64,000 bases of DNA from Nitrospirota bacterium (GTDB lineage: Bacteria > Nitrospirota > Thermodesulfovibrionia > Thermodesulfovibrionales > JdFR-85), in the NCBI GenBank assembly GCA_013152485.1, contig JAADGG010000025.1:50-64049 (forward strand). The letters run 5' to 3'. The stretch's first letter is position 1. Each line of letters opens with the position of its first letter. The notes beneath the pieces are model-generated. The model had not been told where the DNA came from. It saw nothing but the letters and a program-made list of their open reading frames with translations, and did no database searches. Position numbers and translations under genes: made by a program. Positions 313 to 40,758 of this stretch are shown here, one piece after another.

Positions 313-545
313 CTCGGCAAATAAGTACTGTAACCCTTTCAAAACGCAGGATCAAGCCCGGCATGACAAGCTGCCGCCTGGATACAGGGATAAAGAGGCC
401 CGATTATGGACAGGGAGCGGTATGACAGACTCTGAACGGTTTTAAGTATCACAAGAGCTTCACCTGGATGGTGAAGCGTGATACTTACCTCGGAGAGGCT
501 GGACGCCTGGACGAGAATGAGAGAAGAGTCTGTCATATTGCTCCC
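313..545 (-). repeat. Structured repeat element, copy A (core 422-536 plus one flanking unit), inverted relative to copies B and C
   Basis: atgacagactct (422-433) and agagtctgtcat (525-536) form a perfect 12-bp inverted repeat. They enclose the hairpin aagtatcac..cttcacc/ggtgaag..gtgatactt. The flanks (ccataat.gggcctctttat...tatttgccgag in reverse complement) are homologous to copy B. Confidence 0.75.
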
Positions 546-583
546 AACAGGCATACTATTGCAGTATTCGGGGATTATTACTT

Positions 584-652
584 CGGCACAATACTAACCG
601 ATAAAGAGTGTAAGTCATGGCAGGACAGGGGATGGTTCCTGTGTTTTTACCG
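584..652 (-). repeat. U unit with 5' extension (aaaaacacaggaaccatcccctgtcctgccatgactt...)
   Basis: The reverse complement is nearly identical over ~45 nt to the + strand sequence at 4498-4545. Confidence 0.65.
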
Positions 653-859
653 TACACTGTTGTATCCAAGCAACAGCTCATTTCACGGACACCCTATCTT
701 GATCTGACGGGCCAGACCCGCCGTCCTTCCGCGTAGGCCCGCCTTGCGGCACTGGGAAAATCTGCATCCGGTCTTCCCGGGCCCGGCTGTTGACATGCGG
801 ACCGCTGCCTGGTATCCTGAAGGTACGGGCTGCGGTTCGAGGCAGCACGGGCAACTGCC

Positions 860-1231: not shown

Positions 1232-3196
1232 TCAGAAGAGCCCCATCTGATCATCCCTCTTCTCTCTCCTGATCCTGTCTGGCACGGTGACTCGCTTGAT
1301 CAGCCCTTCAGGGACCTCGTCGAGGAAGGGAGACGGCTGCCTGGGGAGACGCCTGCCGTAGAGGAACCTCCTTCTTGCGTGTATCAGGAAGAGCTCGTCC
1401 TTCGCCCTCGTCATGCCGACGTAGAAGAGCCTCCTCTCCTCCTCGATGTCTGCGTCGTCCTTGTTCAGCGTGTACGGGATGAGACCGTCTTCCACTCCTG
1501 CGATGAAGACGACCTTGAACTCGAGCCCCTTCGCCGTGTGCATGGTCATCAGCGTGACGGCGTGGACCCGGGGGTCATAGGCGTCTGCCGGGGAGAGGAT
1601 CTTCGAGTCGTTTATGAATCCGGCGAGAGCCTCCGAAGCGGGCAGGCCCCGGTATGCCGAGGCGAGGTTCTCCAGCGGCGTGAAGCTTCCGCCGTCCCCG
1701 TAAACCATTCTCAGGCCCGACTCCTCGAGCACCACGTCGAGAAGGGCATCGATGCTCAGTCTGTTCTTCAGCTCCAGGAACCGCTCCATCATGACGAGGA
1801 ACTTCCTGTCCCCGCCCGTCCAGCGGTGCGCACACGCCTTCATCGCCTCATAAAGGCTCAGCCCTTCATTTTCGGCACGGGCGGAGGCCTCTGAGATCGC
1901 CTCACTGCTCAGTCCCCGCTGCTCCATGGAGGCGACCCTCCGGAGGGCTTCCCCGTCCGCGGGATCGGCTATGGCGCTTAGGCAGGAGATCGCATCCGCC
2001 GCCGCACTCCTTTTCAGGCGCTGGGGCCTTCCCACCACCTGATACGGGATGCCCGAGGCGGCAAAGGCCTCCTCCATCGCCTTCACCTGCGCGTTCGTCC
2101 TGAAGATGACCGCAAAATCGGAAAAACCGCACGGCTCTCCCCCGTGGCCGTCCATCTCGCCTGTCCGAAAGAGCCGCTGGTGGCTCGTACCGCCGATCCG
2201 TTTCTCTATCTCTCCCACTATGACCTCCCCCTCCGCCCTCTCGTCCGGTACGGAGACGACCGTTACGGGCCTGCCCCTCTCCCGCGAGGGCCGCAGTTCG
2301 CCGGGAATCCTCCTCGTGTTGTTCCGTATCAGGGCTCCCGAGGCTTTGAGCACCGTTTCAGTCGAGCGGTAGTTCCTGGTGAGCACGACCGTCTCGGCTC
2401 CCTCGAAATCCCTTTCAAACCCGAGGAAGTGCTCAACGTCTGCCCCCCTGAAGGCATAGATCGCCTGGTCCGGGTCTCCGACGGCGCAGATGTTGCCGCT
2501 CCTTCCGGCAAGGAGTCTCAGGAGCCTGTACTGTGCAGGACTTATGTCCTGGTACTCGTCGACGATTATGTGGCTGAACATCTCCCGGTACCTCTTCAGC
2601 GTGTCCGTATTGCCGAGCAACTCTATCGGCCTGAGGATAAGGTCGTCGAAATCGAGTGCCGAGTCTTTCCTGAGTGCCGACTGATACTCCTCGTAGAGCC
2701 CGCGCATCTTCTCGTCCGGCTCGGCGAAGAGGTTCTTGGCCCTCGATATCTTCTCCGCAATCACGGTGACCGATGCCTTTGCGCAGGGGCGGGAGGCGGA
2801 CTTCTTCAGCAGGGCCCTTATGAGGCGGACCTGTTCCTGCCTGTCGTATACAGTGAATCCGCCGGAGAGCTCTCCTGCCAGGATCCGTATCCCGAGCGAA
2901 TGGAATGTCCCTATGAACATGCCGCGGGGACTGCCAAGGAGAGCCTCTGCCCTCTCCCTCATCTCCCTCGCGGCCCGGTTCGTGAACGTGACCGCGAGTA
3001 TCCCCTCAGGCCTGACGCCCCGGCTTATGAGATACGCTATCCTGTGGACGATGGTGAGGGTCTTTCCGGTGCCGGGTCCTGCAACGACCAGCACTGGCCC
3101 TTCCAGGGCCGTTGCAGCCCTCCTCTGTGATTCGTTCAGCGTCTGAAGCAGGTTCAATCTCAAGGCGGTCCTCTCGCTGGATGCGCTCACGGCCAC
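1232..3196 (-). CDS. UvrD/Rep/PcrA-family ATP-dependent DNA helicase
   Basis: 654-aa ORF with Walker A AGPGTGKT, DEYQD (motif II), TFTNRAA, and C-terminal VGMTRAKDEL. Confidence 0.9.
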   Translation of the reverse strand: MAVSASSERTALRLNLLQTLNESQRRAATALEGPVLVVAGPGTGKTLTIVHRIAYLISRGVRPEGILAVTFTNRAAREMRERAEALLGSPRGMFIGTFHSLGIRILAGELSGGFTVYDRQEQVRLIRALLKKSASRPCAKASVTVIAEKISRAKNLFAEPDEKMRGLYEEYQSALRKDSALDFDDLILRPIELLGNTDTLKRYREMFSHIIVDEYQDISPAQYRLLRLLAGRSGNICAVGDPDQAIYAFRGADVEHFLGFERDFEGAETVVLTRNYRSTETVLKASGALIRNNTRRIPGELRPSRERGRPVTVVSVPDERAEGEVIVGEIEKRIGGTSHQRLFRTGEMDGHGGEPCGFSDFAVIFRTNAQVKAMEEAFAASGIPYQVVGRPQRLKRSAAADAISCLSAIADPADGEALRRVASMEQRGLSSEAISEASARAENEGLSLYEAMKACAHRWTGGDRKFLVMMERFLELKNRLSIDALLDVVLEESGLRMVYGDGGSFTPLENLASAYRGLPASEALAGFINDSKILSPADAYDPRVHAVTLMTMHTAKGLEFKVVFIAGVEDGLIPYTLNKDDADIEEERRLFYVGMTRAKDELFLIHARRRFLYGRRLPRQPSPFLDEVPEGLIKRVTVPDRIRREKRDDQMGLF

Positions 3197-3201
3197 GGTC
3201 G

Positions 3202-4479
3202 TCAGAAGAGCATCTTCTGTCCCTTGATCTCCTCCCTTTCGACCTTCTCGAAGATCCTTATCCTGCCGTACTCGCCGTCGAAGCCCGGGGCGATATGGAT
3301 CCGGCCCGTACGCACCCTGGAGACGGCCTCCATCAACAGGGGCGAGCCCGCCCTGCCGATATCCTCAAGGGGTGTCTCCATGAGGATTTCGAATTCATTG
3401 CCGAGGCTGCTGAGGACCTTCAGGTATTCGTTGTTCACCTTCTTGCTGTTGACCCCGACCTTGAGGGTCTCCGAGATTATCTCGGGCAGGGGGATCAGGG
3501 AGTGGAAGCCCGGCAGGCCGGGCGGACTGAACCCCTCCTGCCTGTCCGCAAGCTCTTCGACCCTGTGCATGACACCGACCGTGACCCGTCTGCCGCAGAC
3601 CGGGCAGAGGTAGTCGTGCTCTATGGTCTCCCTCGGCGAGAGGCTCACACCGCAGAGCCTGTGACCGTCATAGTGGTACTTGCCCTCTTCAGGGAAGAAC
3701 TCTATGGTGCCGAGAAGACCCTTCTTTGTCCTGACGGCCTCCATGATGGCTCCATATGAGAGGTCGGTGTCGAATATGTTCGCCTCGCGGCCGATCTTTG
3801 CGGGCGAGTGGGCATCGGAGTTCGATATGAGGGTTATGCCGTCAAGCCGTGAGAGCCTCCGGTTCATCTGCGGGTCCGAGGAGAGCCCGGTCTCTATGGC
3901 GTGGATGTGCGGGGTCAACTCCTCGAAGCACTCCTCGAGAGAATCGAAGCCCGACATCGCCCCGAAGACCGAGAAATGCGGGGTCCATGCATGGGCCGGC
4001 ACGAGCATGGCATCGGTGGACACATCCAAGACCATCTTCAGGAGCTCCTTTGCATCGAGCCCGAGTATCGGCCTGCCGTCTGCCCTGAGGTTACCTATAC
4101 CCGACAGGACCGCATTCAGCCTTGCGGCATCGGCAAAGTCGGGCACGAACACGATGGAGTGTATCTTCCTGGTCCTGCCGCCCTTGCTGTATATGCAGCT
4201 GATCTCAGCGGAGAGGAGGAAGAAGGGCTCGGCCCGGCAGGAATCCGGGACCTCTGCAGTCCTGTAGTCGTCCTTCAGGGTGAAGAGGCCGTTGCCGGCA
4301 GGTTCGAGCTTCTCCCGGAGCTCGTTGAGCCACCCCGGATGCGTGAAGTCCCCGGTGCCTACGACGTTGACGCCCTTGAGCTGCGCCCACTTCCATATGC
4401 TCTCAGGGGACATCTCCCTGCTGGTAGCCCTCGAGTACTTCGAATGAATGTGGAGGTCCGCTACGAAACGCATGTGCAA
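3202..4479 (-). CDS. PHP-domain protein, endonuclease Q-like (TIGR00375-type)
   Basis: 425-aa ORF. N-terminal DLHIHSKYS...GTGDFTHP PHP motif, later HYDGHRLC and a CPVCGRRVTVGVMHRVEEL zinc-finger-like segment. It lies 5 nt upstream of the helicase gene. Confidence 0.65.
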   Translation of the reverse strand: MHMRFVADLHIHSKYSRATSREMSPESIWKWAQLKGVNVVGTGDFTHPGWLNELREKLEPAGNGLFTLKDDYRTAEVPDSCRAEPFFLLSAEISCIYSKGGRTRKIHSIVFVPDFADAARLNAVLSGIGNLRADGRPILGLDAKELLKMVLDVSTDAMLVPAHAWTPHFSVFGAMSGFDSLEECFEELTPHIHAIETGLSSDPQMNRRLSRLDGITLISNSDAHSPAKIGREANIFDTDLSYGAIMEAVRTKKGLLGTIEFFPEEGKYHYDGHRLCGVSLSPRETIEHDYLCPVCGRRVTVGVMHRVEELADRQEGFSPPGLPGFHSLIPLPEIISETLKVGVNSKKVNNEYLKVLSSLGNEFEILMETPLEDIGRAGSPLLMEAVSRVRTGRIHIAPGFDGEYGRIRIFEKVEREEIKGQKMLF

Positions 4480-4497
4480 TTATACCATGAATAGTGT

Positions 4498-4586
4498 CCG
4501 TTAAAAACACGGGAACCATCCCCTCTCCTGCCATGACTTGCCCTGTTTGCCTGACGGTATCGACCACAAACAAAGGTTTGAAAATC
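4498..4586 (+). repeat. U unit with 5' extension, direct orientation
   Basis: ccgttaaaaacacgggaaccatcccctctcctgccatgacttgccctgtttgcctgacggtatcgacc... aligns with the reverse complements of 584-652 and 102-158. Confidence 0.65.
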
Positions 4587-4679: not shown

Positions 4680-4766
4680 GGGTTATTAGCACTCTCTGCG
4701 TTAAAGTGCTAACAACATCCTGATCAGTGATCATTACCTATTTCGGGACATGCGGAGGTGATAGTA

Positions 4767-5821
4767 ATGAGAATTGCTCAGGTTTCCCCGCTTTACGAGA
4801 GTGTTCCACCCCGTCTTTATGGAGGGACAGAGAGGATCGTTTCTTACCTTACCTTACCGAGGAGCTGGTCAAGGCGGGTCACGAGGTGGTGCTCTTCGCC
4901 TCCGGTGACTCAGAGACCTCGGCCGAGCTCGTGCCGATATGCGAGACCGCCCTGAGGCTCGAGAAGAGGTGTGTGGACCCTGTCTCGCTCCACTTTCTAC
5001 AGATGGAGGAAGTCCTGAAGCGCCAGGACGAGTTTGATATCATACACACGCATGTCGACTGTTTCGGTTTCGCCCTAGCAAGGAGGACGGCCGTGCCTGT
5101 GGTCAGCACCCTTCACGGCAGGCTCGACCTCTGGGGCTATCCATCCGTCTTCAGGGAGTACCGGGAGATCCCCCTCGTCTCGATCTCGAACGCCCAGAGG
5201 AGTCCGCTGCCCTTTGCGAACTGGGCTGCGACCGTCTACCACGGACTGCCCGGCGAGTTGTACAACCTGAACGAGGACGGCGGTGACTATCTCGTCTTCG
5301 TCGGAAGGGTATCACCCGAAAAGCGGGTTGATTCCGCGATCGAGATAGCCGTAAAGGCCGGCATCCCGCTCAAGATAGCGGCAAAGGTGGACAAGGCCGA
5401 CGCCGAATACTTCGAGGCGATGATCCGTCCCCTGCTGAAGCATCCGCTCGTGGAGTTCCTCGGAGAGATCAACGACGAGGAGAAGAACGAGCTTCTCGGC
5501 TCGGCACTCGCCTTCCTGCACCCTGTCGACTGGCCGGAACCCTTCGGTCTTGCGATGATCGAGGCGATGGCCTGCGGCACCCCCGTGATAGCGAGGCGCA
5601 GGGGGTCCATTCCCGAGGTGGTCGATCACGGAATAACCGGGTTCATCTTTGAGGAGGACAAGGAGGCTGTCTTCAGTATCAAGAACCTCCTCGGCAACTT
5701 TTCGAGGAGGGCCTGCAGGGAGCATTTCGAGAAGAGGTTCCTGGCAAGCAGGATGGCCGACGATTACCTGGGTGTCTACGTCAGGCTGCTGAGCGGGAAG
5801 TATGAACAGAAAGTCGCCTGA
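4767..5821 (+). pseudogene. GT4-family glycosyltransferase interrupted by a +5 frameshift (extra CTTAC unit)
   Basis: The N-terminus MRIAQVSPLYESVPPRLYGGTERIVSYLT is in the frame of ORF 4758-4955, with RBS ggagg 7 nt before ATG 4767. The rest (EELVKAGHEVVLFASGDSE...) is in the frame of ORF 4727-5821. The junction is cttaccttaccttacc (4843-4858). Deleting one cttac restores IVSYLTEELVKAGHEV. Confidence 0.85.
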
Positions 5822-19325: not shown

Positions 19326-19380
19326 GATGACGTGCACCCCTTATTCGGACGGTATTGTTTCGGGGACACTTTTCTTGATC
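19326..19380 (+). repeat. U unit, direct orientation (upstream of pcrA)
   Basis: gacgtgcaccccttattcggacggtattgtttcggggacacttttc matches 27381-27425 with 3 mismatches in 45 nt. Confidence 0.7.
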
Positions 19381-19430
19381 CAATGCGGGGGTTTGCCTTA
19401 TTGGATGAAAACCCTTAATAATAGACCTCC

Positions 19431-21449
19431 ATGGACATGCATACGAGACTGTCACGACTCAACCCCTCACAGAAGGAAGCGGTCATGCATACCGAGGGCC
19501 CGCTCCTCGTACTTGCCGGCGCAGGGTCGGGAAAGACGAGGGTGATAACCATGAGGACCGCCTACCTCATACACACGGGGGTCAAGGCCGGCTCGGTGCT
19601 GGCGGTCACCTTCACAAACAAGGCCGCCAGGGAGATGAAGCAGCGGGTGAAGTCGATCCTGGGCGGCGGTAATGCATCACCGGTCGTCTCTACGTTCCAC
19701 TCCCTCTGCCTCAGGATCCTCAGGCGGGAGATCGAGCAGATCGGGTACAGGCGGGACTTCACGATATACGATACCTCGGACCAGGTCTCCCTCCTCAGGA
19801 GCCTGATGTCGGACATCAGGTTCCATGACAAGAGTTTCAAGGCCGAAGCCGTCCTCGAGAGGATCAGCCGGGCGAAGAACCGTTCCTCGGTGCCGGAGGC
19901 CGCCTCGACCGGGGATCCGGTGGATGAGATCTCGGCCATGATATATCCGAAGTACATGGAGTCGCTCAGGTCGATGAACGTCCTCGACTTCGACGATCTC
20001 CTGCTGCTTACGCTGAGGCTCTTCAGGGAACATCCACAGGTGCTCCAACGGTACAGGGAGCGGTTCAGGTACCTGATGGTCGACGAGTATCAGGATACGA
20101 ACCGCGTTCAGTACGAGTTCATAAAGCTCCTTGCCGGAGAGAGGAGGAACCTCTGCGTGGTCGGTGACGACGACCAGTCGATATACGGCTGGAGGGGCGC
20201 CGACATCGGCAACATACTCGATTTCGAGAAGGATTTTCCGGGCACCGTGACCGTGAGGCTCGAGCAGAACTACCGCTCGGTGGGCAACATACTCAGGGCG
20301 GCAAACGGTGTCATAAGGAACAACAAGAGGCGGATGGAGAAGTCCCTCTGGACCGACAGGGGTGAAGGGCCGAAGGTCAATCTCTTCAAGGCCGCCGACA
20401 CCGAGGACGAGGCCGACTGGGTGGTAGGCAGGATCTCGATGATCATGTACGACAAGGGGCTGCCTGCCGAGGATATCGCCGTCATCTACAGGGCGAACAC
20501 CTTTTCGAGGCCTTTTGAGGAGGCGCTCAGGAGGAGGCGGATCCCTTACTCGGTGGTCGGGGGAACGGGCTACTTCGAACGCAAGGAGATAAAGGACCTG
20601 ACGGCGTGGCTCAAGGTCATCGCAAACCCCTCTGACGACCAGAGCCTCCTGAGGGCTGCCGGCGCGCCGAAGAGGGGGATCGGGCCGGCGGCCCTCGTCC
20701 GGCTGATGGAGCACGCACGGACAGGCTCGGGGAGTCTCCTCGATGCATTCGGGAAGGCCCGCTCCGTAGAGGGTCTGGGCAGGGAGGCCGCCGCATCCGC
20801 CGAGGAACTCTTCGGCCTGGTCTGCCGCTACCGTGACGTCTTCAGGGAGGGCCGCGGGATGGGCAGGGCTCTCGAGGCGCTGATCGAGGAGATCGGCTAC
20901 AAGGACTATATTCTGAAGCTCTACAAGACCCCTGAGGCGGCTTTCAGGAGGCTGGAAAACATGGAGGGGCTGGTCGAGTCGATCACCCACTACGAGACGG
21001 TGGAGTCCGCACCCTCCCTTCACGGGTTCCTCGAGACGATGGCCCTCACGGACCTGCTGCAGGAGAAGGAGGAGAGGGGCGGGCGGGGCGTGACCCTGAT
21101 ATCCCTGCACTCATCGAAGGGGCTCGAGTTCCCGGTGGTCTTCATAGTCGGCGCAGAGGAGGATATACTGCCGCACAGGAAGTCCGCAGAGTGTGACGGG
21201 GGGATCGAGGAGGAGAGGCGGCTCTTCTATGTCGGGATAACCAGGGCTATGGACGAGCTCTACATCACGTACACGGGCAAGAGGCTGAAGTACGGCAAGG
21301 CGAGACCGTCCGTTGCCTCGAGGTTCCTGGAGGAGATCCCCGACGAGGCGATAAACCGGCTCGAGAGGTTCGAAGAACTCGACCCCGAGCAGGAGAAGGC
21401 CTATGTCAAGAAGCTCTATGCGGACCTGATGGCCAAGCTCGAAGAATGA
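19431..21449 (+). CDS. pcrA: ATP-dependent DNA helicase PcrA/UvrD
   Basis: 672-aa ORF with LNPSQKEAV, AGAGSGKT, DEYQDTN and VGITRAMDELY. It is the second UvrD-family helicase in the window. Confidence 0.9.
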   Translation: MDMHTRLSRLNPSQKEAVMHTEGPLLVLAGAGSGKTRVITMRTAYLIHTGVKAGSVLAVTFTNKAAREMKQRVKSILGGGNASPVVSTFHSLCLRILRREIEQIGYRRDFTIYDTSDQVSLLRSLMSDIRFHDKSFKAEAVLERISRAKNRSSVPEAASTGDPVDEISAMIYPKYMESLRSMNVLDFDDLLLLTLRLFREHPQVLQRYRERFRYLMVDEYQDTNRVQYEFIKLLAGERRNLCVVGDDDQSIYGWRGADIGNILDFEKDFPGTVTVRLEQNYRSVGNILRAANGVIRNNKRRMEKSLWTDRGEGPKVNLFKAADTEDEADWVVGRISMIMYDKGLPAEDIAVIYRANTFSRPFEEALRRRRIPYSVVGGTGYFERKEIKDLTAWLKVIANPSDDQSLLRAAGAPKRGIGPAALVRLMEHARTGSGSLLDAFGKARSVEGLGREAAASAEELFGLVCRYRDVFREGRGMGRALEALIEEIGYKDYILKLYKTPEAAFRRLENMEGLVESITHYETVESAPSLHGFLETMALTDLLQEKEERGGRGVTLISLHSSKGLEFPVVFIVGAEEDILPHRKSAECDGGIEEERRLFYVGITRAMDELYITYTGKRLKYGKARPSVASRFLEEIPDEAINRLERFEELDPEQEKAYVKKLYADLMAKLEE

Positions 21450-21544
21450 CCTGCCCGGTCCGGGCCCTGCATCCGGTGACGTCGCACATGCCCTGTGCCG
21501 TGCCTCCCGGGATTGAAATAACAGAGGGACGGGGAGTAGACTAA

Positions 21545-21950
21545 ATATTACACCGGCAATAAAACACCATAGACCAATAGACCATGGCTGAAAGGTTACA
21601 GGAAGCGGTTATTTCTGTATCCAGGCAGCAGTTTGTCATGCAGGACTTTATCCTGCGTTATGAAAGGGCTACGAAGTAATAATTGATGGTTGTTGAGAGC
21701 AATATGACAGACTCTTCGCTCATTCGTGCCGGCGTCCGGCTCGTCCAGGCATCCGGCCTGGACTCCGAGGCAAGTATCACGCTTCACCATCCAGGTGAAG
21801 CCCTTGTGATACTTGAAACCGTTCAGAGTCTGTCATATCGCTCTCCCTTTCCATAAATTGAGCCTCTTTATTTCTGTGTCCGGGCATTGGTTTGTAATGC
21901 ATGACTTGATTGTGCGTTATGAATAGGGTTATGGTACTTATTTGCCGAGG
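21545..21950 (+). repeat. Structured repeat element, copy B (unit-core-unit; core 21704-21836)
   Basis: The 12-bp stem is atgacagactct (21704-21715) with agagtctgtcat (21825-21836). Internal hairpins are gtccaggc/gcctggac and aagtatcacgcttcacc/ggtgaagcccttgtgatactt. A ~85-nt unit (ttatttctgt.tcc.ggc...tgcgttatgaa.ggg) is present on both sides of the core. Confidence 0.8.
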
Positions 21951-22215
21951 TCGATCGAGTTATAACCCGATCACGGATATAGTGAGCATATGGCCTTCCT
22001 GAACCGAGTCAGGCCAGGGTGAGCTGAAACAATGTCGGCTCAATCATGAGACAACTACATAACGGGGAGAGTGCGGCAGCGGCCGTTCTGGTCAGGAGAG
22101 CAGGATTGAAAAAGCAGAAACATGAGGGGGACATGGGCAGCCTGGTCTGGAGGGCTTTCCGGCCCACTGATCCGTCAGTGCGGGCGGAATCTCTTGCCGG
22201 GTCCGGTCGGGAACC

Positions 22216-27254: not shown

Positions 27255-27378
27255 CGGGCCGCCGCCCGGGGCTCCACGCGTATTGGATCAGGATTCCCTG
27301 TCCCTGAAACCGGGATTGATTGGATCATAGGATTGTCCCGTATTGATCCCTTGCTTCCTTCAGGCCTCCTCTCCGGCC

Positions 27379-27431
27379 GTGACGTGCACCCTTTATTCGG
27401 ACGGTATTGTTTCAGGGACATTTTCAATGAC
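27379..27431 (+). repeat. U unit, direct orientation (upstream of tRNA-Ala)
   Basis: gacgtgcaccctttattcggacggtattgtttcagggacattttc is a near-identical twin of 19328-19372. Confidence 0.7.
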
Positions 27432-27515
27432 CTGATGCGCACGATGTAAATCCTTGTAAGTTTTATGATATTATAGATGGGGCTTGCGGAACGTTTGAAG
27501 CGAGTACTCAGCGTC

Positions 27516-27591
27516 GGGCGGTTAGCTCAGTCGGGAGAGCGCCAGAATCGCACTCTGGAGGTCGGGGGTTCGACTCCCCTACCGTCCACCA
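27516..27591 (+). tRNA. tRNA-Ala (anticodon CGC), CCA encoded
   Basis: Hand-folded cloverleaf. The acceptor stem gggcggt/accgtcc contains the G3:U70 alanine identity pair. D arm gctc/gagc, anticodon stem ccaga/tctgg with loop atCGCac, T arm ggggg ttcgact cccct, then ACCA. Confidence 0.9.
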
Positions 27592-40421: not shown

Positions 40422-40758
40422 TATATACCGGCAATAGAACGTCCTGACCCACGGTTGATTAGGTTGCAGGAATCGCTATCTCTGCAGGTTTGTCCTGCCG
40501 GACTTGATCCTGAGTTATGAAAGGGCTGCAGTATTTATTGGTCGAAGTAATTAATAATTTATGGCTGTCGGTAGCGATATGACAGGCTCTCCACTCATTC
40601 TCGTGCCGGCGTCCGGCTCGTACCGGCGTCCGACTCGTACCGGCGTCCGGCCGGGAGTCCGAGGGAATTTCGCAGTTCACCATCCGGGTGAATTTGCTGC
40701 GAAATTAAGACCGTTCAGAGTCTGTCATAGCGCTCCCTGTCCATAATTGAGCCTCTTT
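40422..40758 (+). repeat. Structured repeat element, copy C (unit-core; core 40579-40728)
   Basis: The stem is atgacaggctct (40579-40590) with agagtctgtcat (40717-40728). It has one G.U-compatible change. The hairpin gaatttcgcagttcacc/ggtgaatttgctgcgaaatt replaces the copy B stem with compensatory changes. A 17-nt tandem repeat lies at 40606-40652. Confidence 0.8.

Follow-up and report, generated by a model that had tools for sequence, protein, structure and literature searches.

A stretch of 64,000 nucleotides from a Nitrospirota bacterium (positions 50 to 64,049 of contig JAADGG010000025.1, assembly GCA_013152485.1), hereafter called the window, carries three copies of a structured repeat. 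The repeat belongs to a large and so far uncatalogued family of mobile sequences of ~200 bp that form hairpins and are found in Nitrospirota genomes. These copies are probably small, noncoding, nonautonomous mobile elements that resemble miniature inverted-repeat transposable elements (MITEs), that have spread through Nitrospirota genomes, and whose fold is selected at the level of the element itself. A first-pass annotation of the window had hedged between a candidate noncoding RNA (ncRNA) and a MITE-like repeat, and it is the MITE-like half of that description that the evidence backs.

The three copies are named A, B, and C, and their helices are P1 (the closing stem) and P2 and P3 (the internal hairpins). 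On the strand preferred by the first-pass annotation, hereafter the annotated strand, which is minus for copy A and plus for copies B and C, the elements with their extended arms occupy positions 392..559, 21681..21869, and 40556..40758, respectively. A covariance model of the element, R1, detects them at 404-553, 21687-21854, and 40562-40746 with scores of 141.2, 146.5, and 120.2 bits (E from 1e-27 to 1e-34), and a search of the 64-kb window with filters off reveals no fourth copy at E<0.5, palindromic reverse-strand echoes aside. Given these scores and the otherwise empty window, the occurrence of three copies is far beyond chance. The annotation had located all three and reported their sequences faithfully, including the 12-mer ATGACAGACTCT and its complement that bound each copy. 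Exact matches to this 12-mer occur in the window only at 422, 525 (minus), 21704, 21825 (minus), and 40717 (minus), and the match at 40579 carries a single mismatch, the A-to-G change at position 8 (40586, plus strand) that had been noted for copy C. The inner P1 arms of copy A accordingly lie at 422-433 and 525-536 on the minus strand.

Conservation outside this 12-bp stem had been taken as a poor fit to terminal inverted repeats, a view that does not survive closer alignment. Homology among the three copies spans from ~25 nt before the 12-mer to ~35 nt past its partner, and the arms of copy B (21681-21715 and 21825-21859, 35 nt each) are 80% complementary. Because the conserved flanks are complementary to one another, the 12-bp stem forms only the inner end of much longer, imperfect inverted repeats at the termini.

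Copies A (read on the minus strand) and B are 95% identical over the 81 nt that they share. The P3 hairpin sequences that the annotation quoted for copies A and B versus copy C agree with both sequence and alignment, and the contrast between them is real; copy A belongs to a P3 subfamily of type 'a' (TATCAC) and copy C to type 'b' (TTTCGC). These are two widespread subfamily modules, however, and not the product of a substitution within this genome, as the description of a "replaced" outer stem had implied. The P2 stem of copy A is damaged by a 3-nt deletion. In the P2 region, a 17-nt tandem unit, TCGTGCCGGCGTCCGGC, is present with no extra units in copy A, one in copy B (~21724-21740, plus strand), and two in copy C, where three units, TCGTGCCGGCGTCCGGC and variants, form an expanded P2 arm (40601..40651, plus strand). 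Each unit is able to form its own small GC hairpin, and this expansion is absent from all 53 copies in other genomes. With their tandem expansions, their diverged outer arms, and their mosaic arrangement with a second repeat, X (described below), the window copies are somewhat atypical members of the family, and no border direct repeats are evident at any of the three. Most likely, they are old, immobile passengers.

Relatives were sought in several ways. A scan of genomes with an 18-mer from the 3' side of the element recovered four loci in three other Nitrospirota metagenome-assembled genomes (MAGs), with six further loci (L001, L003, and L005-L008) set aside as presumed chance matches to the 18-mer. 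A scan of metagenomes with a gapped pattern made from the three junction strands gave 54 loci, of which 49 are real and contain all three helices, and the rest (L027, L028, L029, L046, and L050) are chance matches within one coding gene. Both public scans were single-shot and pattern-based, so the invariance of the junction among their matches is partly built in. Most of the metagenome matches come from hydrothermal-vent and marine-sediment assemblies and make up one tight group, the Nitrospirota family. Searches with R1 covered ~0.5 Mb of related DNA; in 374 kb of related DNA the model finds 56 full copies, most of them from Nitrospirota MAGs and vent or sediment metagenomes, at a density of up to three per 5.5-kb or 14-kb contig. 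Viral contigs searched with two patterns gave no match. The annotation had recognised no known RNA family in the element, and none in Rfam matches it: across the whole window at gathering score a tRNA is the sole match, and positions 21600-21960 match nothing on either strand even at E<=10. Literature on MITEs in Nitrospirae or Nitrospirota, and on palindromic in-frame elements in bacteria of the candidate phyla radiation (CPR), likewise provided nothing relevant.

The family members share a common plan. The full element is ~200-230 bp long, and its termini fold back as P1 around a three-way junction with P2 and P3. The closing helix P1 is followed by the strand TCACTCATT, by a short helix CTCG/CGAG carrying the variable P2 hairpin and a CTC bulge, by a single G, by the variable P3 hairpin, and by the strand AAAnCCGTTC, after which the chain returns into P1. 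The junction strands CTCTTCACTCATT-CTCG, CTC-CGAG-G, and AAAnCCGTTC-AGAG are near-invariant. In copy B, P1 is formed by 21695-21715 and 21825-21845, and the junction region comprises the strand TCGCTCATT at 21716-21724, CTCCGAGG at 21763-21770, and AAACCGTTC at 21816-21824 (all plus strand).

Covariation, which the annotation had noted for the internal hairpin, is real and strong once relatives are added. In the R1 alignment of 56 copies, standard pairs make up 93.1% of pair cells, compared to 78% when partners are shuffled and 34-42% when partners are slid by 1-3 columns. Changes on both sides are seen for 43 of the 51 pairs, and no observed value was matched in 500 shuffles, with the caveats that the alignment was fitted to R1 itself, that the sequences are related, and that P2a (CTCG/CGAG) and two pairs extending P1 are invariant and thus uninformative. 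Five copies that were found by R1 and missed by the exact pattern have compensatory changes at the base of P1 (CCCT/AGGG and GTTT/AAAC), which provides evidence independent of how the copies were ascertained.

The helices also behave as interchangeable parts. In other genomes, the P3 modules TATCAC and TTTCGC occur in near-all combinations with at least three P2 modules, and P1 exists in three matched versions at the same two positions (CAG/CTG, TAG/CTA, and TTG/CAA, for example in L021, L025, L036, L045, and L048). Mismatched P1 hybrids, such as a left arm with CAG and a right arm with CAA, are seen as well, which suggests that arms are exchanged between copies via recombination or gene conversion. 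The P2 hairpin varies in length (19, 21, 22, or 23 nt) in steps that are not multiples of three, and therefore no reading frame is conserved and the element is noncoding; a small conserved open reading frame (ORF) starting from an ATG in P1 was rejected on the same grounds. Overall, P1, P2, and P3 covary strongly around a near-invariant junction, and the fold seems to be under selection. Neutral decay of a transposon relic cannot yield reassorting, covarying helices together with ~40 fixed junction nucleotides across phyla whose copies otherwise have nothing in common.

Some members lie outside of the Nitrospirota family. A few very different copies (L026/L038, L047, L049, L056, L057, and L039) keep the junction strands, and they also keep positions that were not part of the search pattern: the first motif is preceded by CTCTTCA and followed by TCG, C precedes the second motif, and AAA precedes the third. 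P1, P2, and P3 in these copies bear no sequence relation to their Nitrospirota counterparts, yet they remain complementary. In L026, L038, and L049, miaA itself contains the element; the gene is part of a conserved thrS-miaA-gatB neighbourhood, and its open reading frame is kept. The hosts of copies of this type are Candidatus Giovannonibacteria and further members of the Patescibacteria. When aligned to solved MiaA structures, the insert, an extra 25-47 residues, falls in a linker immediately behind the conserved RRLIRAIEI motif. Relative to miaA, the element is oriented antisense in L026 and L038 and in the sense direction in L049. Among 120 MiaA homologues, this linker varies in length between 18 residues, the canonical form, and more than 70, and it includes recognisable element translations in either orientation, with shorter forms that look like decayed remnants. 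When R1 was applied to the DNA of three such homologues, it scored 83.8 bits in L070 (minus), 69.1 bits in L069 (plus), and 15.5 bits for a remnant in L071. The miaA loci with this hypervariable linker, from Candidatus Giovannonibacteria and relatives, are L026:6029-7102, L038:830-1918, L049:5015-5995, L069:1501-2499, L070:1501-2574, and L071:1501-2433.

A search with the 49-residue insert peptide, in one frame and orientation, returned only two proteins among 1.84 billion representatives, both MiaA-like and with the insert at the same linker position. The miaA insert therefore looks like one old insertion site and not a general habit of landing in genes. Recurrent in-frame insertion in the manner of the RPE repeats of Rickettsia is unsupported, with in-frame copies found only in miaA of Giovannonibacteria. 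The other copies of the patescibacterial type are intergenic, being located upstream of metK, between convergent genes, or between a Thy1-like gene and secD. The copy near metK (L056:20-155, minus; metK 206-1264, plus) places the reverse strand of the element 85 nt upstream of the S-adenosylmethionine (SAM) synthetase gene and in the same sense, where SAM riboswitches are typically located; other copies have no such context.

Evidence for mobility comes from the termini, the borders, and the pattern of presence and absence. Copies of the Nitrospirota family are homologous from about AACCCGAATCCAGTGATAAA to TTTATCGCTGGATCCGGGT and no further. The consensus ends (CCCGRATCC...GGATCCGGG) are mutually complementary, giving arms of ~65 nt in an element of 200-230 bp. 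Among the 22 copies with recognisable ends, 13 are bordered by direct repeats of at least 4 nt (TATAA, GATAA, ATAA, AAAG, AAAA, ACAA, and ATTT), compared to a mean of 4.0 and a maximum of 8 copies in 200 shuffled left-right pairings. The mean border repeat is 3.18 nt, against 1.79 +/- 0.32 in the shuffles.

Insertion polymorphism is seen in a filled and an empty version of the same site. In two Nitrospirota assemblies, L009:1340-1690 (minus) and L044:10800-10950 (plus) have flanks that are 94-96% identical, and the 200 extra nucleotides in L009 are the element. The spacer upstream of ftsH tells a similar story. In L065, whose FtsH is 83% identical to that of the window and which is syntenic with window positions 11-35 kb, the uvrD-ftsH spacer is 268 bp long and lacks the element, and R1 finds no copy anywhere in the 21.9 kb of this locus. 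In L066 (FtsH 82% identical), an element is present. A motif, GATTGAAATA-N-GGGAGTAGACTA, is conserved upstream of ftsH in all three (window 21510-21545, L065:9860-9895, and L066:127-165) and contains the promoter-like sequence TTGAAA-N18-TAGACT (21513..21542, plus strand), which has a sigma-70-like score. Relative to this motif, the element is on the upstream side in L066 and on the downstream side in the window (copy B), so that the insertions must have been separate. Two observations of the sort that the annotation had named as telling against a plain ncRNA, enrichment of repeats resembling target-site duplications and insertion polymorphism, were thus made, each in part.

Which strand might be active was also considered. 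The annotation had argued from a G.U pair that the annotated strand is the one transcribed, and this argument fails. The window copies together have three G.U and three A.C appositions on that strand, and across the family there are 34 G.U versus 87 A.C (13 versus 65 in P1 alone), with A.C exceeding G.U in 27 columns and the reverse in 10. An ungapped, model-independent count of P1 gives 75 A.C versus 27 G.U, the divergent patescibacterial copies lean the same way, and the minimum free energy is lower on the reverse complement for 47 of 51 copies, by a mean difference of 6 kcal/mol. After clustering at 90, 85, and 80% identity, the A.C:G.U ratios become 55:24, 30:16, and 29:18. The family thus lends no support to the annotated strand and some to the opposite one, although the asymmetry is suggestive and not proven.

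A nonautonomous mobile element of the MITE kind most simply accounts for the number of copies in the family, for their termini and border repeats, for their polymorphism, and for their noncoding character. The elements are small and noncoding, have terminal inverted repeats, and occur as dispersed copies with insertion polymorphism, all of which are hallmarks of MITEs. Among 40 of the larger ORFs of the window, none encodes a transposase or recombinase domain. Several points nevertheless weigh against this reading. The annotation had pointed to target-site duplications and an autonomous insertion sequence as the marks of an ordinary MITE. Repeats resembling such duplications are enriched as described, but they are short (3-5 nt), A/T-rich, and present at only part of the copies, and so they offer support and not proof; the junctions of the filled and empty pair carry small further differences, and the length of a duplication cannot be read from them. 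No autonomous parent with matching termini was found in the window or in the ~0.5 Mb of related DNA, and a BLAST search of the collected loci for solo arms or arms spaced by kilobases returned only normal elements. The 24 junction bases specified by the metagenome pattern are invariant by construction, which limits independent evidence for junction conservation to the other junction positions and to copies found by the covariance model or through proteins. The strand asymmetry becomes weaker on de-duplication. Moreover, cut-and-paste transposition by a DDE enzyme alone leaves the covarying internal hairpins and the cross-phylum invariance of the junction unexplained.

Orientation is a further difficulty for the MITE-like reading, and it also fits a function at the RNA level. 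The annotated strand is co-directional with both neighbouring genes for 23 copies and opposed to both for 4, as counted with a crude ORF caller and with orthologous duplicates included, such that the independent loci are fewer; the bias remains despite these duplicates. The L009 element, a demonstrably recent insertion, is in the rare orientation and is one of only two Nitrospirota copies that oppose both neighbours. For this single case, purging of one orientation over time fits better than biased insertion.

Selection on the fold probably acts at the level of the element and for its own propagation, such that only copies that keep the junction and helices would be recognised and propagated by the mobilising machinery. 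The working form of the fold could be either single-stranded DNA or a transcript, and the strand that matters may, on the modest asymmetry noted above, be the complement of the one originally chosen. A bolder proposal is that an undescribed, structure-dependent kind of mobile element shared by distant phyla has this junction as its working core (CUCUUCACUCAUU-CUCG / CUC-CGAG-G / AAAnCCGUUC-AGAG, or its complement), which would act either as folded single-stranded DNA for a nuclease or recombinase or as a small catalytic or self-processing RNA, with the long arms and variable hairpins serving only as scaffolding. This idea is speculative and on balance unlikely.

Three covarying helices around a conserved junction are also the classic signature of a functional RNA, and the copies might therefore be structured ncRNA genes or cis-acting RNAs used by the host (a small RNA, an mRNA leader, or an operon element) that multiplied by duplication and whose fold is selected for a cellular role. 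The non-random orientation of 23 to 4 would suit such a role, as would the tendency of copies to occupy the entire spacer between two genes, often only 27-100 nt from both, the location of copy B between a conserved promoter-like motif and ftsH, and the patescibacterial copy upstream of metK. Yet the neighbouring genes have no common function (ftsH, truA, uvrD, an amylase-like gene, metK, secD, and miaA), neither sigma-70-like sites nor intrinsic-terminator-like sites are present within the element or at its ends, and both presence and position vary at the same spacer in close relatives. The element also resides within an open reading frame in both orientations, the wobble statistics favour the strand that is antisense to host genes, and Rfam holds no match. 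Taken together, these findings make an RNA used by the host improbable. A riboswitch or another cis-regulatory leader in particular was ruled out by the diversity of neighbouring genes and by the occurrence of the element 3' of genes and inside miaA.

A related proposal, fully compatible with a mobile origin, is that the copies are exapted passengers that act on host mRNAs in the style of REP, ERIC, or Correia elements, with the P1 duplex serving as an RNase III target or as a block to 3' exonucleases and thereby setting how stable the flanking cistrons are. The hairpins formed by Correia and ERIC elements in host transcripts are processed, and those of Correia can be cut by RNase III. Copy B with its arms is predicted to fold at about -95 kcal/mol, most copies are presumably co-transcribed in the sense direction between co-directional genes, and the excess of A.C over G.U on the sense strand could mean that hosts tolerate weakened mRNA hairpins. 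That same excess is found in patescibacterial copies with a different orientation toward host genes, however, and an effect of this kind leaves the conserved junction and the covariation of P2 and P3 unexplained. Exaptation as the main explanation is accordingly quite unlikely.

Even harder to credit is the notion that the junction is a catalytic or protein-recruiting RNA, such as an undescribed self-cleaving ribozyme, that spreads via an RNA intermediate in the manner of retrozymes or SINEs. An invariant junction with freely varying stems across phyla is what such an RNA would show. On the opposite strand, direct reading of the sequence shows that P1 is capped by tandem GA/AG followed by AC/GU, an arrangement often seen in structured RNAs. 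The repeats at the borders vary and are rich in A, and the orientation bias could reflect purging of the active strand from operon mRNAs, with the recent L009 insertion in the rare orientation. Set against these hints are the lack of any Rfam ribozyme match even at E<=10, the lack of a reverse transcriptase seen nearby, and long inverted termini that are foreign to retroelements. A hammerhead-like core was considered and dismissed by inspection, since the junction strands (9-10, 1, and 9-10 nt) and their sequences misfit the CUGANGA / GAA / H layout on either strand.

Least credible of all is an invertible DNA segment in which the P1 arms act as inverted repeats and the core flips: the Giovannonibacteria miaA linker does hold the element at the same point in both orientations, in MiaA proteins of similar divergence and with the frame open each time, but independent or re-inserted copies with palindromic ends give the same picture, a one-base asymmetry of the arms stays linked to the core, the surroundings contain no invertase gene, and dozens of copies per Nitrospirota genome would be unexpected for a switch.

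Among known systems, the closest analogues of the MITE-like elements described here are the ERIC and Correia elements, which belong to the same general class. Like the present element, ERIC (or IRU) sequences of Enterobacteria and Vibrio are imperfect palindromes (100-200 bp) that are intergenic, usually in transcribed regions, multi-copy, strongly conserved in sequence across genera, noncoding, and without a known transposase. They share no sequence similarity with it and occur in another phylum, and an ERIC is one long palindrome, whereas the present element has a closing stem and two asymmetric hairpins around a conserved junction, and short border repeats and a filled/empty pair have been seen for it. 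The Correia elements of Neisseria (CREE or NEMIS) are MITEs of 100-160 bp with terminal inverted repeats of at least 26 nt, a short A/T target duplication, and dozens to hundreds of copies that are co-transcribed with their neighbours. Their duplication is a fixed TA, whereas the repeats here are ~4-5 nt and variable, and they have no covarying internal three-way junction; conversely, no IHF site or outward promoter was identified in the present element.

Other comparisons are more limited. RPE sequences of Rickettsia are small palindromic repeats that reside in frame within coding genes without destroying them, much as in miaA of Giovannonibacteria, although here the in-frame insertion seems limited to one gene and the window copies are intergenic. 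REP, BIME, and REPIN sequences, which are associated with RAYT proteins, are short structured intergenic repeats, often between co-directional genes; they are thought to move as folded single-stranded DNA, and they form mosaics with other modules, as the present element does with repeat X. REPs, in contrast, are 20-40 nt palindromes with a GTAG head and no long terminal repeats. The present element has no such head, no Y1/RAYT transposase is encoded among the window ORFs, and a REP/RAYT identity was rejected on these two counts. With integron attC sites the element shares an emphasis on structure over sequence, the possibility that one strand is active when folded, and a terminal structure that may be a three-way junction. 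Unlike attC, its junction sequence is conserved and its copies are dispersed, 20 kb apart among housekeeping genes. It lacks R''/R' boxes (the closest candidate, GTTCAGA, misfits GTTRRRY), and neither a cassette array nor intI is present, so this identity too was discarded.

Small palindromic repeats are widespread among bacteria, and this family provides an unusually clear handle on how such repeats move and why some are so conserved. Its stems drift while covarying, and ~40 junction nucleotides stay fixed from Nitrospirota to Patescibacteria, a pattern pointing to what may be a folded unit with a defined role in recognition or catalysis. The miaA copies, in frame in either orientation, illustrate how a protein linker can take up such an element. 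Of more immediate use, R1 allows annotators to mask or label these elements in Nitrospirota MAGs, where they take up the spacers of operons, give rise to spurious ORFs, and probably cause breaks in assemblies. Polymorphic insertions could also help to track strains in vent and sediment metagenomes.

All three window copies are intergenic, and 40 of the larger ORFs of the window are ordinary housekeeping genes. A uvrD-like gene and ftsH flank copy B, a porin gene and truA flank copy C, and copy A is found 3' of a second uvrD-like gene. The first-pass annotation stated that every copy points toward a downstream co-directional gene, which holds for copies B (ftsH) and C (truA); the downstream side of copy A lies beyond the window edge. 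To judge from the promoter-like motif and the ftsH start, between which it sits, copy B is probably within the ftsH 5' leader. The window copies are probably passengers in these settings (within the ftsH leader, immediately before truA, and on the 3' side of a uvrD paralogue), where they would add a very stable hairpin, by the same prediction of about -95 kcal/mol, to host transcripts. The FtsH annotated in the window is three residues shorter than the translation of the longest ORF. The two UvrD/Rep-type helicase paralogues (1232-3196, minus, and 19431-21449, plus) share 72-74% DNA identity in their 3' parts, and each has an element copy downstream, the elements (95%) being far more alike than the genes. 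Segmental duplication of uvrD with its downstream region was considered as the origin of copies A and B and was rejected because of this disparity in identity and because the order of modules differs.

Repeat X is ~70-95 nt long, holds the hairpin GCAGGAC-TTTAT-CCTGC, and always abuts the three-way-junction element in the window. It is found at 21609..21684, 21868-21951, and 40488-40551 (all plus) and at 314-393 (minus), with a fragment at 167-192; the module at 21609..21684 adjoins copy B on its 5' side. Repeat X starts with the outer right-arm sequence of the element and finishes with the outer left-arm sequence, and the two thus form a mosaic or tandem arrangement. Weak relatives of X lie beside elements at L051:3907-3952 and L018:8925-8956.

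Two further repeats were observed in the window. Repeat Y (ACAACACGGTCCGATAAAGAGTGTAAGTCATGGCAGGAGAGGGGATGGTTCC...) is found at 123-163, 193-238, and 588-661 (plus) and at 4490-4572 (minus), with a weak match at 27368-27410. These four or five copies are all intergenic, near copy A and in the divergent spacer between 3202-4479 and 4727-5821, and Y was not found in the other collected loci. Lastly, a 60-nt direct repeat with 85% identity occurs at 19328-19387 and 27380-27439, just upstream of the uvrD-like gene that starts at 19431 and of a tRNA gene (27516-27588), respectively, and it may represent a shared promoter region or another repeat family.

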